Positions 1,716 to 5,951 of a stretch of 13,968 nucleotides of DNA are shown in pieces. The notes beneath the pieces were generated by a model. It was not told the origin of the DNA and did not search any database. It saw nothing but the letters and a program-made list of their open reading frames with translations. Location: IMG/VR virus record IMGVR_UViG_2537562191_000040, positions 1-13,968 of that record; one strand, 5' to 3'. The DNA is from a virus (Duplodnaviria; Heunggongvirae; Uroviricota; Caudoviricetes). Both the position numbers and the translations under genes were made by a program. Each line of letters starts with the position of its first letter. Position 1 is the first letter of the stretch.

Positions 1716-1768
1716 AAACGATTTGCGGGAAAAGGATAGTTAAGTAGAATTGCTGCGGGTGCTTGAGG

Positions 1769-1804
1769 CTATCTGCCTTGGGCATGAACACCAAAGGCAG
1801 ATAG
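1769..1804. repeat. Inverted repeat with 11-bp perfect arms (CTATCTGCCTT ... AAGGCAGATAG) around a 14-nt spacer
   Basis: Read directly from the sequence. There is no T-run on either side, so it does not look like an intrinsic terminator. It lies at the left border of the AT-rich island. Confidence 0.6.
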
Positions 1805-2002
1805 AGAAAAACCCACCCGACTATAAATCAAAGTGTATTACCCCCATTTGTTGGACGATGAAATGGGTTTAGTTAACTATGTCGGTATCGACATGACTAA
1901 AACAACCTTAAATTGCTCGATTAATAGACAAGTAGTTTTGAAAGATTAAATTTATGCGATCCGGTATTTTCAAGGGATAGCCTTTATGAGGTTATCTTAT
2001 GG

Positions 2003-2040
2003 GGTTAAAACATCAAGAACAGTTGTGTTATAATACATAG
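2003..2040 (+). promoter_or_regulatory. Putative sigma70 promoter for the methyltransferase gene, with extended -10 (TGtTATAAT at 2026-2034)
   Basis: Consensus TATAAT hexamer with an upstream TG, about 33 nt before the ATG at 2067. Confidence 0.45.
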
Positions 2041-2066
2041 AAACTAATAAGAGACGTTGCAACTAT

Positions 2067-3218: not shown

Positions 3219-4175
3219 CCTATAGTATTTATAATAGTTATCCCGTTCATTTTCGTTTAAAGAGAACTCTTCAGCGGCTGCCTGATATGCTTCTTTATCA
3301 GGCAGTTTACTATCTAAATTTATCTTTTCTTTAATTGTTAGTGTTGGTATTGCTATTTCTTGCACGTCTTCCCAATTTGTTGAATAAAATTGCCAGTTAG
3401 AAAGGTCGCATGCCTTAGATAACTCTATATATTCTTGTTCTGAGGAGAAAAAACCTGATATTGTCAACATGGTATGACTGCCATCATTATATTGATTTAA
3501 GGATAATGGGTAATACTGAATCTTATCCTTACGTCCTGAAAGACCACGTTCTATTGCTGATCTAAAAGCGTTTGTAATAATTCGTATTAAAAGAGCTTTA
3601 ATCTTACGATCTGAAAGATCTGCATTTGATATCTGAAGATTAAAATCAAGATACTTTTTCCCAAGCAATGATTTTAATGAATTAATAAAAGCTTCTTTAA
3701 AAATATCTAAACTTTCTCCAACTCTACGTTGGTAATAAGAACTAGGATTTATGGGGAAGGTGACCTTCAAAATATCAAAAGAGCTTACTTTAGTACTTAG
3801 TAAGTGTATATCATCTAGATCCGTTTGTATTTTTTTCGGGGAGGCATAGTCTAACCATGTTATTGATGGTTTAGAAAAACTATAATCAAGAATAAAGTCA
3901 TGAGCTGATATTAGCTTACAATCAATACAATTATAAGGCAAATTATATTTTTGTCTGATGTGAGTAGACTCTTGTTCTTCGAGAGAAATCATATCAGAAA
4001 GAGCGATACGATTATGCATGATTCTAAAATCTTCAAGCATCGGACCACCAAAACCTATATATGTATATTCTTGAATATTTAGTCTTTTGCTTAAGAGGTT
4101 TAGGCTTTCGAGAAAAATCTCTCTATCAATAGACTTATTATGCCTTAAGTGATAGGGAATGTATTGTCCAGACAT
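3186..4175 (-). CDS. Hypothetical protein (329 aa), operon partner of the GHKL ATPase; function unknown, candidate effector/nuclease
   Basis: Long AT-rich ORF. Its ATG overlaps the stop of the upstream gene (TGATG) and is preceded by a GAGGTG Shine-Dalgarno sequence. Its 3' end overlaps the 3' end of the methyltransferase gene by 33 bp in convergent orientation. I recognise no catalytic motif. Confidence 0.7.
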   Translation of the reverse strand: MSGQYIPYHLRHNKSIDREIFLESLNLLSKRLNIQEYTYIGFGGPMLEDFRIMHNRIALSDMISLEEQESTHIRQKYNLPYNCIDCKLISAHDFILDYSFSKPSITWLDYASPKKIQTDLDDIHLLSTKVSSFDILKVTFPINPSSYYQRRVGESLDIFKEAFINSLKSLLGKKYLDFNLQISNADLSDRKIKALLIRIITNAFRSAIERGLSGRKDKIQYYPLSLNQYNDGSHTMLTISGFFSSEQEYIELSKACDLSNWQFYSTNWEDVQEIAIPTLTIKEKINLDSKLPDKEAYQAAAEEFSLNENERDNYYKYYRLYPNFQRIMV

Positions 4176-5566
4176 CACTTCACCTCTTCAATCACCGTAT
4201 CAAAGCATTGCATCCCCACATCAGAAGCGCTAGCATCTTCATGTCCAAAGAAATATTTAGATAAAATTTTAACATCTTCTTTCTCTCTGGTGAAGATTAT
4301 TCGTACAGTAGAGCTTTTTTTTACTGGGGTAGGCAGCTTAGGTGTATATCGCCACTCATTTTTGTTTCTATTAGGGTTGGACCAGTTATTTTTTTTATCT
4401 TCTGGAGTTGATTGTGGGGTAATTTCAAATAAAGATTGAGCTTCATGTGACTGAGCTGACTTAAGTAATTTTTTCCCTTCTTCAAGATGCTCACCTTTCC
4501 ACTGATTGGTGAATCGAATAAAATGCATCATCCCTTCAATCATTTTATTTCGTACATCATTGTACAATGTAGAACTAAGATCGACACCTCGTTTCGTTGT
4601 TGTTATTGGTAATTTTTCTGGGTTTTTACTGGTAAAGCGAACAACCCCAGAAATTGCTATAAATTGGGTATGAAACCTTGGTACATTAGCAAAGCCCCAA
4701 CCTGTGAGATGTGTCTTATCACAATATAGAACAACGCGGTCATTGCAAATGACAGTCCATCCAGCATCATCAGAACTCCTTTTTTCTAAAACATCATCAT
4801 TGTCATCTTCTAAATTTTTATAGAAGCCAACAACTAAATCGATATCAACATCGTCTATTTTAGCTTTATATATGTATGGTTCTATTTTAGAATGATCAGT
4901 TATGATGTTAATCGGATTATGTTCAACAACAACTCCATTTAATTCTATTTTAAATCCTTTTTGAATAATAAATGACAATGAGTGTTTTATCTGTAAAAAG
5001 AGATCAGTAAGATATGTGCTCTCATTAAATTTTTGTGCCACATTAGAATGGAGTTTTTTTATCTCTATAGTTGTGCCTGTTGGATTTTTGTTATCATAGT
5101 CACTCTCGTGCATCGGTATTTTCCAACCATCACCATCGATCCAATCAGGTGTTATATCTACAGTGAATGCGCCATCGGGATTATTCGATTGTATTGAGCA
5201 ATCTCTACCCATTTTAAAAATGGCTCTTTTCATACCAATACCATAGACGCCAACGGTGCCTTCATTTTCTTCTTCTTTTTGATGGGGTCGTCCCATTTTA
5301 AAAGCATATTCTCGGAAGCTTTTAGGGATACCTCCGCAATTGTCTTCTATAATAAAGACATCTTTATTAATCGTAAGTTTCGCATAAAATCCTTCATATG
5401 GTTTTGAAGTTTTTTTTGTGTCTTTTATTGTACGTAAAGCCCCATCGACGCAGTTATCAAGCAGATCAAGTATGGCATCGTTTAAGTCGATATCTCGAGT
5501 TAGCATACTTACAAAAAATCTTTTACTAGGACTAAAGTCTGCTGTTGGAGTCGTGTTCTCAGTCAT
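4175..5566 (-). CDS. GHKL-superfamily (MORC/MutL/Hsp90-like) ATPase (463 aa)
   Basis: Bergerat-fold motifs in canonical order: N-box LDLLDNCVDGA, G1 box IEDNCGGIP (MutL-like DNGxG), G2 box GVYGIGMK, and a downstream GTTIEI element. There is no transmembrane or HisKA region, so it is not a sensor kinase. Confidence 0.8.
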   Translation of the reverse strand: MTENTTPTADFSPSKRFFVSMLTRDIDLNDAILDLLDNCVDGALRTIKDTKKTSKPYEGFYAKLTINKDVFIIEDNCGGIPKSFREYAFKMGRPHQKEEENEGTVGVYGIGMKRAIFKMGRDCSIQSNNPDGAFTVDITPDWIDGDGWKIPMHESDYDNKNPTGTTIEIKKLHSNVAQKFNESTYLTDLFLQIKHSLSFIIQKGFKIELNGVVVEHNPINIITDHSKIEPYIYKAKIDDVDIDLVVGFYKNLEDDNDDVLEKRSSDDAGWTVICNDRVVLYCDKTHLTGWGFANVPRFHTQFIAISGVVRFTSKNPEKLPITTTKRGVDLSSTLYNDVRNKMIEGMMHFIRFTNQWKGEHLEEGKKLLKSAQSHEAQSLFEITPQSTPEDKKNNWSNPNRNKNEWRYTPKLPTPVKKSSTVRIIFTREKEDVKILSKYFFGHEDASASDVGMQCFDTVIEEVK

Positions 5567-5610
5567 AATTTACTCTCTATGTGTTTGGGAAAATAAATAC
5601 CTTAAGTGCA

Positions 5611-5646
5611 AATTGTTGATTTTAAACGCTTCGCATGCGAAGTCAA
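5611..5646 (-). promoter_or_regulatory. Putative promoter of the GHKL operon (-35 TTGACT, 16-bp spacer, -10 TAAAAT on the minus strand) with an embedded 14-bp perfect palindrome CTTCGCATGCGAAG (5629-5642)
   Basis: Read from the minus strand upstream of the ATG at 5566. The palindrome covers the spacer and part of the -35, a typical operator position. Confidence 0.4.
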
Positions 5647-5951
5647 CGATGTTAAGAAAGAAAGTGCATGTGATCTAACAGTATGTTTTTAAAAAAAGAT
5701 TAGCTTTATGAGAATTCAGGACTGAATCCCGTGAGAGGAAAATAACATATGTTATTGTTGCATTGCTGTGTTGTTTGGGATTTGTTGCACCATTCTGGCG
5801 TTGGTATATCTAGTTCGTTGTTCATTTTGTTAATTGTACAACAGGCAGACAACAGAGAGCTTTTAGCCTAGTTAGCTTACGAAATTAAACAACTAAGATT
5901 ATCGGCGGGGAGTGGTCACCGCTACTCTTTGGCTAGGAGACTTCAACGCAA

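Follow-up and report, generated by a model that had tools for sequence, protein, structure and literature searches.

Does a short AT-rich island in an Escherichia coli prophage encode one immune system, or a set of genes that work separately? The island lies in the IMG/VR virus record IMGVR_UViG_2537562191_000040 (Caudoviricetes), whose positions 1 to 13,968 were analyzed as a whole and are referred to here as the window. It contains dcm, a DNA (cytosine-5) methyltransferase gene, and, convergent with it, a two-gene operon encoding a GHKL ATPase with an S5 transducer domain (463 amino acids [aa]; GHKL below) and a 329-aa protein (MT35 below). Our reading, which is tentative and falls somewhat short of probable, is that dcm and the GHKL-MT35 operon make up a single mobile immune cassette with a restriction-modification (R-M)-like logic and no canonical nuclease. 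Coordinates are positions in the window with the strand in parentheses, and L-numbers denote the individual gene-cassette loci that were compared.

A three-gene island in a cargo-swapping prophage site

The host element is a Rac-like lambdoid prophage of E. coli O157:H7, a context taken from the annotation of strain PA20, which is 99.93% identical to the window over positions 813-12995. In the composition profile of the window, the G+C content is 0.30-0.39 over positions ~1800-5900, compared to ~0.45-0.57 outside. With homology breakpoints as limits, the cargo spans 1712-6016 (4.3 kb) and has a GC content of 0.351, compared to 0.496 and 0.515 for the flanks; this confirms the low-G+C, three-gene island of ~4.2 kb described in an initial annotation made from the sequence alone. 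The breakpoints are those of phage vB_EcoS-666R9, in which homology to the left flank extends to position 1711 and homology to the right flank starts at 6017, with a different 2.7-kb cargo in between. Because 666R9 shares both flanks but holds other cargo, the island is a moron in a cargo-swapping site, which agrees with the earlier view of this part of the prophage as a hotspot for morons. On one side of this site are the replication genes and on the other is the DUF1367/DUF1364/DUF1133 late-regulatory block. Exactly three credible genes (dcm, the 329-aa gene, and the 463-aa gene) are present in the island, and 172 of 5,426 complete E. coli genomes carry an identical copy of all of it. The island is no chance feature. 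Its parts are as follows.

1712-6016 (no strand): low-GC cargo island (moron) in the replication-to-antiterminator interval, from the GC drop and the 666R9 breakpoints
2005-2034 (+): suggestive promoter-like site 5′ of dcm, TTAAAA-18-TATAAT with TG extension, 10/12 consensus, 33 nt from the ATG
2067-3218 (+): dcm, DNA (cytosine-5) methyltransferase, 383 aa, PF00145, catalytic motifs intact
3186-3218 (no strand): 33 bp shared by the convergent 3′ ends of dcm and MT35, as seen in the sequence itself
3186-4175 (−): MT35, 329-aa protein with a predicted class I methyltransferase fold, PF20553, annotated "O-methyltransferase," from Pfam and the predicted structure
4173-4178 (−): translational-coupling junction GTGATG, read directly from the sequence
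4175-5566 (−): GHKL plus S5-transducer ATPase (paraMORC-like), 463 aa, from PF13589, PHROG 20521, and AlphaFold2 (AF2)/Foldseek
5619-5646 (−): suggestive promoter-like site 5′ of the GHKL-MT35 operon, TTGACT-16-TAAAAT, 10/12 consensus, 53 nt from the GHKL ATG

The minus-strand operon is translationally coupled, as had been proposed: within GTGATG, which is preceded by GAGG, one base belongs to both the GHKL stop codon (AAG TGA) and the ATG of MT35, and the 329/330-aa MT35 open reading frame (ORF) spans 3186-4175/4178 (−). The operon is convergent with dcm through the 33-bp 3′ overlap, where no terminator-like site was found. Its promoter-like site lies within a 500-bp AT-rich intergenic region (5567-6065); the counts of promoter- and terminator-like sites in the region were no higher than in shuffled sequences. 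Judging from the ratio of nonsynonymous to synonymous substitution rates (dN/dS), all three genes are under purifying selection; the values were ~0.04 to 0.07 for each gene against an 85%-identical relative, at a dS near saturation.

The three genes are linked across genomes

Forty-nine loci, 23 of them nonredundant bacterial or metagenomic loci and 26 from viral contigs, were seeded with GHKL or MT35. GHKL directly precedes MT35, usually overlapping it, in 52 of the 52 loci having both genes, and the overlap of 1 to 4 nt seen in the window recurs in other loci. The pairwise identities of the two proteins also covary (r = 0.83). A Dcm gene lies next to the pair in 19 of the 23 bacterial or metagenomic loci and in all 26 viral-contig loci (45/49 overall), and in 44 of the 45 it belongs to the same subfamily.

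The position of the Dcm gene is variable, being convergent with the pair in the window, divergent in L021, and codirectional elsewhere. Seven loci (L017, L023-L027, and L051) have the order Dcm→GHKL→MT35, with a Dcm-GHKL gap of 12 to 23 bp in L023-L027, and two (L015 and L016) have the order GHKL→MT35→Dcm. The tail-to-tail overlap of dcm and MT35 is found also in L004, L020, L022, and most viral-contig loci. Because the linkage persists through these rearranged orders, it points to selection on the gene combination. Looking up loci from the Dcm side gave a similar picture, with the trio recovered in two of three cases: a Klebsiella P2-like prophage and a Thiobacillus locus, in which Vsr→GHKL→MT35 is convergent with Dcm. 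The third, from Acinetobacter, has Dcm and a 650-aa paralogous GHKL (GHKL2, described below) alone.

Conserved linkage of a methyltransferase to its partners across lineages is a hallmark of type II R-M systems, and it is present here. No recurrent fourth gene, such as a nuclease or helicase, emerged from an all-against-all BLAST of the neighbors in 18 loci, where integrases and transposases alone recur, and an association with a helicase or endonuclease was seen in no locus examined.

The initial annotation had offered two alternatives: one system, or an orphan methyltransferase beside an independent pair. The Dcm counts, the several gene orders, and the Dcm-seeded look-ups strongly favor the first and speak against the second. 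In the second case, GHKL and MT35 would be a two-gene system, for instance of the abortive-infection type, with a trigger unrelated to methylation, and Dcm would be a frequent passenger. We consider this decidedly improbable, although some observations are in its favor. In four cyanobacterial loci the pair occurs without Dcm; one of these pairs is carried by a Tn7-like element (TniQ/TniB/Mu-transposase C terminus), and another lies beside AAA_35 STAND NTPases, PNP_UDP_1, and a trypsin-like protease. Dcm identity is also weakly correlated with pair identity (r ~0.3). In the Klebsiella pneumoniae P2-like prophage (L055, 6001-9516), the Dcm is 66% identical to that of the window, and dN relative to the window is 0.54 for GHKL and 0.62 for MT35, compared to 0.30 for Dcm. 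This pair is far more diverged than its Dcm, which indicates that Dcm has reassorted with different GHKL-MT35 lineages. Apart from the adjacency counts, a passenger role fits poorly with the occurrence of three gene orders, including a codirectional operon with a short gap, and with the tie of the same Dcm subfamily to the paralogous GHKL2.

Two further observations on individual loci are recorded here. Among the lone pairs (L002/L003, L011, L012, and L013), two are syntenic beside NDH/antiporter genes. In Thiobacillus L057 (7140-7889), MT35 is truncated to 249 aa, compared to 312 aa in the near-identical L058 (7140-8078), while GHKL, Vsr, and Dcm are intact. This natural loss-of-function variant could inform on toxicity or dispensability.

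Dcm is an intact cytosine-5 methyltransferase

The window Dcm matches PF00145 over profile positions 1-322 of 324 (E = 2.6e-61; 208 bits, cutoff 22), and it also matches TIGR00675 (157 bits, cutoff 100.65) and PADLOC MTase_II (E = 2e-98). Its translation contains FSGVGG, PPC79Q, ENV, and GNSVSP, so that both the full-length match and motifs I, IV, VI, and X place it among the C-5 cytosine DNA methyltransferases. The PADLOC profiles DruM and DrmMII match as well, a similarity that is generic to the 5-methylcytosine (m5C) family. The Dcms linked to GHKL-MT35 form one orthologous subfamily with 39 to 56% identity to the window Dcm. The exception is L019, where a Dcm of a different type lies upstream. 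The target-recognition region is conserved across the linked Dcms (CPTLRAGTGxDKGSxQAVRP...TKWHSFRxIGNSVSP).

The ATPase is paraMORC-like

The 463-aa protein matches PF13589 (E = 2.9e-9; 37.5 bits, cutoff 25) and PHROG 20521. The complete plus-strand m5C methyltransferase and the GHKL ATPase of the initial annotation were thus both recovered. The AF2 model of GHKL (predicted local distance difference test [pLDDT] score of 80.9) aligned in Foldseek over ~400 columns to the two-domain GHKL+S5 modules of Hsp90/TRAP1 N-M, ParE, MORC2/3, and SMCHD1, and residues ~333-463 form a short, family-specific helical C-terminal region. The motifs are DLLDN38CVDG, DNCGGI, GVYGIGMK, and TTTK325RG. Across 24 homologs, N38, D75xGxG79, G106xxGxG111, GT165, and the transducer lysine K325 are invariant, which places the protein in the GHKL superfamily with an S5 transducer (MutL/GyrB/Hsp90/MORC class). 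The S5 domain has an unusually invariant polar block, AGWTxxCNDRxVxxxD...TGWG...PxxHxQF. Homologs number more than 5,400, with ~45% identity across Cyanobacteria, Nitrospirales, Gemmatimonadetes, and Proteobacteria.

By eye, no convincing match to the MORC-specific S5 motif GhXhhpXXRhl was seen in the alignment, and the PDB profile search gave a marginal match to MORC3 (E = 0.036) over the G1-G2 region. The protein is best called paraMORC-like, not MORC. MORC and paraMORC GHKL ATPases found with Dcm and Vsr have been predicted to act in R-M and are linked to helicases and endonucleases (Iyer, Abhiman & Aravind 2008, PMC2292703).

A MutL-like ATPase beside a Dcm could also serve repair. In this case, GHKL and its partner would aid very-short-patch (VSP)-type repair of the T:G mismatches that m5C deamination produces and would thereby lower the mutational burden of the mobile Dcm. 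Vsr is found in seven related loci, with the operon order Vsr→GHKL→MT35 in Methylomonas and Thiobacillus, and E. coli MutL stimulates Vsr (cited in Iyer et al. 2008, PMC2292703). We give this explanation very little weight. Most loci, including that in the window, lack Vsr; the MutL C-terminal dimerization/endonuclease domain is absent, and no sequence match to MutL was obtained for GHKL in a PDB profile search. In addition, VSP repair has no place for a partner with a methyltransferase fold, and a position in defense hotspots would be unexpected for a repair factor.

MT35 has a predicted methyltransferase fold and no nuclease was detected

The initial annotation recognized no motif in the 329-aa protein. 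However, residues 2-329 match positions 1-308 of the 309 in PF20553 (Methyltransf_35, "putative O-methyltransferase"; E = 2e-89; 300.4 bits, cutoff 27), and the protein also matches PHROG 19983. The family comprises 2,216 clusters at 50% identity, nearly all of them stand-alone proteins of ~330 aa. The predicted model (pLDDT, 87.7; predicted template modeling score, 0.86) has a seven-stranded class I S-adenosylmethionine (SAM)-methyltransferase fold, and its sole Foldseek matches are methyltransferases, where a nuclease or other effector fold had been sought. Across 178 diverse members, the SAM-pocket residues Y40, G44/G45, E67 (end of β2), and W108-L-D110-Y (end of β4) are near-invariant, as are an N-terminal basic cluster (Y9, R12, K15, and R19) and R75, N79, Y230, D232, and E284. 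By the same threshold, Cys is near-invariant at no position, and Pro-Pro is missing from motif IV. From the predicted model and these residues, MT35 looks like a functional SAM-dependent enzyme; "O-methyltransferase" is a putative Pfam family label. An hhalign comparison with E. coli RsmD and RlmE was not significant and is uninformative.

At E ≤ 1, neither Pfam nor NCBIfam nor PADLOC gave a nuclease match for GHKL or MT35, the fold searches gave GHKL/S5 and methyltransferase folds alone, and sequence searches of the PDB with both proteins gave nothing useful. The earlier suggestion that the ATPase and its partner restrict foreign DNA thus received no structural backing: the one is a GHKL+S5 module with a helical tail, and the other has a SAM-methyltransferase fold.

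A nuclease might nevertheless be hidden in these folds. GHKL-MT35 would then be a two-subunit, ATP-dependent restriction endonuclease, with Dcm protecting the host sites, and the active site would lie in the MT35 family-specific insertions or, as the best candidate, in the invariant Asp/His cluster of the S5 domain (C274-N-D276-R...D283...H299). This is possible but unlikely. The linkage that supports our own reading supports it equally, R-M loci typically show convergent or Dcm-first gene orders, the diversity of restriction enzymes is notorious, and the polar block in the S5 domain is unusually invariant; conserved S5 or C-terminal motifs of paraMORC proteins were flagged as possible new nuclease or substrate sites (Iyer et al. 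2008, PMC2292703). Against this, the models are confident and non-nuclease folds account for every residue-rich domain, no nuclease family was matched, the RefSeq names for GHKL and MT35 are not those of restriction enzymes, and the cyanobacterial pairs persist without an adjacent methyltransferase.

Genomic surroundings and a paralog point to defense

The surroundings of the cassette are those typical of defense systems. First, in L055 the trio occupies the P2 gpA-gpQ (old/tin) interval, which is a hotspot of anti-phage systems (Rousset et al. 2022). Second, one type I R-M locus has the cassette between its hsdM/hsdS and hsdR genes. Third, the neighbors elsewhere include AbiEi/AbiEii, an AAA_15/AAA_21 ATPase, Mrr and Uma2 nucleases, and toxin-antitoxin and CdiI genes. 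Finally, the cassette is found as Tn7-like cargo and in the lambdoid cargo-swapping site of the window.

Further evidence comes from GHKL2, a protein of ~580 to 650 aa that adjoins the same Dcm subfamily in six loci (L008, 9672-11498; L018, 882-2627; L056, 7124-9076; L014; L015; and L016). It is 28% identical to the window GHKL over the whole GHKL+S5 module (E = 1e-29), and the two have the signatures GWxVxCNDR...TGW...H and LPxT[ST]K in common. In GHKL2, the helical tail is replaced by a ~210-aa domain that matches the C terminus of PADLOC PD-Lambda-5_A (E = 1.7e-16). Experiments have validated PD-λ-5 as a broad-range defense encoded by an E. coli prophage, and it is described as "RM+Abi" (Vassallo et al. 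2022, PMC9519451). In R-M neighborhoods, paraMORC GHKL ATPases fused to HEPN (Ymh) have been described as analogues of PrrC/RloC (Anantharaman et al. 2013, PMC3710099); a Pfam scan of the GHKL2 tails gave no match to HEPN/Ymh or to any other Pfam family. These comparisons suggest a common design of Dcm, a GHKL clamp, and an effector module, in which the effector would be part of the same polypeptide in GHKL2, whereas in the window MT35 would provide it in trans. The likeness to PD-λ-5 is confined to GHKL2 of other loci and to the C terminus of _A; the window GHKL and MT35 match neither the _A nor the _B profile (PADLOC, E ≤ 1). Compared to paraMORC-HEPN proteins and PD-λ-5, the window GHKL has a short helical tail, and any effector-like function would come from MT35. 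In Acinetobacter, Dcm and GHKL2 form a stand-alone two-gene unit, and the GHKL2 of L056 contains a long QQGQQD repeat linker.

The same evidence bears on whether the cassette attacks foreign DNA at all. Two methyltransferases and an ATPase could write, or write and read, a DNA mark that regulates genes or that guards the prophage or mobile element against restriction by other systems. Such a modification-only, epigenetic module would account for two methyltransferase-fold proteins without a nuclease and for the retained SAM-pocket residues of MT35, and orphan methyltransferases are frequent in phage nin-type regions. It would leave the obligatory coupling of an ATP-driven GHKL clamp unexplained, however, and the location in dedicated defense hotspots and islands, the GHKL2 tail shared with a validated defense protein, and the many copies outside phages make it quite unlikely.

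A model for the cassette

From the gene anatomy, predicted folds, conserved catalytic-type residues, linkage, hotspot context, and selection, we infer the following scheme for an immune cassette. Dcm would protect resident DNA by marking its target sites. The GHKL+S5 ATPase would act as a MORC/MutL-like dimeric clamp and, through translational coupling, would be made in a stoichiometric complex with MT35. This complex would be the ATP-dependent arm that senses the missing methylation and engages unmarked DNA, such as that of an incoming phage or plasmid. MT35 might then stop the unmarked DNA by acting on nucleic acid as a SAM-dependent transferase, or the DNA might be clamped or compacted at the expense of ATP; such a noncanonical effector step is favored because no nuclease is detectable. 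An R-M-type immune reading is further supported by the 2008 prediction that neighborhoods of paraMORC GHKL, Dcm, and Vsr act in R-M (PMC2292703).

A more specific form of nuclease-free immunity, which seems to us rather unlikely, is that the GHKL clamp reads the missing m5C mark and activates MT35 as a nucleic-acid methyltransferase effector. MT35 might then methylate RNA or DNA and arrest translation or replication. If true, this would be the first defense with a methyltransferase effector, and the way in which MORC ATPases work with DNA methylation in eukaryotes would have a bacterial forerunner.

Several points weigh against an immune cassette of three interdependent genes. First, the four cyanobacterial pairs are intact and have no DNA methyltransferase within 2 to 8 kb; because of this, the pair may need no Dcm or may use one encoded elsewhere, and a strict dependence of GHKL-MT35 on Dcm is in doubt. 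Second, the predicted general-base position in the N box of GHKL is an invariant Asp34, not Glu, and ATP turnover may therefore be slow. Third, the nearest structural neighbors of MT35 are RNA methyltransferases, not DNA ones. Fourth, the absence of any nuclease or other established effector fold leaves the effector step conjectural. Finally, no paper on the cassette and no reported phenotype were found in the searchable literature, and PADLOC 2.0 has no model for GHKL or MT35, an absence that cuts both ways.

Relation to known systems

No named system was matched by the three proteins in PADLOC 2.0, and NCBIfam and PHROGs likewise gave none beyond generic Dcm matches and function-unknown PHROGs. 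PADLOC 2.0 is thus currently blind to the cassette. The term "undescribed" used earlier stands insofar as the module is unnamed in PADLOC 2.0 and NCBIfam, but it was too strong, because both partner proteins have Pfam and PHROG families and paraMORC R-M systems were predicted in 2008 (PMC2292703). The cassette is real, widespread, and of the predicted kind, and it is not categorically new.

The closest known relatives are the paraMORC R-M operons predicted in 2008. Common to both are the GHKL+S5 module, a family-specific C-terminal extension, a neighboring m5C methyltransferase, Vsr in some loci, and a sporadic, laterally mobile distribution. Unlike those operons, which have a superfamily II helicase and/or an endonuclease, the cassette has neither, and it has an obligate methyltransferase-fold partner, of which the passages of the 2008 paper that were examined make no mention. 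With type II R-M systems, the cassette shares an intact Dcm-family enzyme, tightly linked partners, a convergent or methyltransferase-first order, a mobile low-GC island, and occasional Vsr. It differs by ATP-dependent GHKL machinery, a second methyltransferase-fold protein, and the lack of an endonuclease fold; the libraries and fold searches gave no cognate endonuclease such as defines a classical type II system.

BREX, DISARM, and Druantia type III resemble the cassette in combining a self-marking methyltransferase with ATPases and no obvious dedicated restriction nuclease, whereas their signature partners (PglZ/BrxC/BrxL, DrmA/B/C, and DruE/H, respectively) are absent from it. Eukaryotic MORC silencing has in common the GHKL+S5 fold, with structural matches to MORC2/3, and a genetic coupling to cytosine-5 methylation. 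The cassette GHKL lacks the CW, coiled-coil, and chromatin-reader domains, however, and with marginal sequence similarity, a functional analogy is speculative. Three other candidates were rejected: Vibrio cholerae WonAB is an ABC ATPase with a PD-(D/E)xK nuclease, V. cholerae VcSduA is a GHKL-Shedu fusion, and the HEF_HK/paraMORC two-component-like proteins have a different architecture.

Neither GHKL nor MORC appears in a 2025 review of R-M biology, and no experimental test of the GHKL/paraMORC R-M-like systems predicted in 2008 was found in the searchable literature. The cassette offers a compact, three-gene entry point into this class that is native to E. coli. If it is an immune system, it combines a MORC-like clamp with cytosine methylation and does without a recognizable nuclease; it would then extend bacterial immunity by a new effector type and bear on the origin of eukaryotic MORC-based silencing. 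In Shiga toxin-producing E. coli O157, O111, and related lineages, the cassette may also influence DNA uptake, the m5C methylome, and susceptibility to phages.

Other features of the prophage

Positions 1-812 of the window had no match to the PA20 prophage. The ORF at 132-770 (+) encodes the catalytic core of an IS3-family transposase (rve, PF00665; E = 4e-28), and an insertion sequence or a fragment of one thus lies at the left end of the window. At the left border of the island, positions 1632-1814 are ~92% identical to a region of the Shiga toxin (Stx) phage 933W labeled "sokW antisense RNA / L0139," and another phage record gives "Hok/Gef family protein" there. A 27-aa hydrophobic ORF lies at 1632-1715 (MTWPEAFTTVGIAMAVALVVYSICRWG), and no Rfam match to Sok RNA was obtained at the gathering score. 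The segment may be a degenerate remnant of a type I toxin-antitoxin system.

The prophage carries two tRNA genes (7646-7721 and 7822-7898, both +). One has the anticodon CAT and is called Met by ARAGORN and Ile by RefSeq; it is probably an Ile2 tRNA modified with lysidine. The second gene encodes tRNA-Arg(TCT), of the rare-codon type typical of Stx-type prophages. Further downstream, two small RNAs (sRNAs) in Rfam abut on opposite strands: STnc100 at 8668-8860 (+; 145.8 bits) and AgvB, an anti-GcvB sRNA encoded by prophages, at 8861-8922 (−; 96.5 bits).

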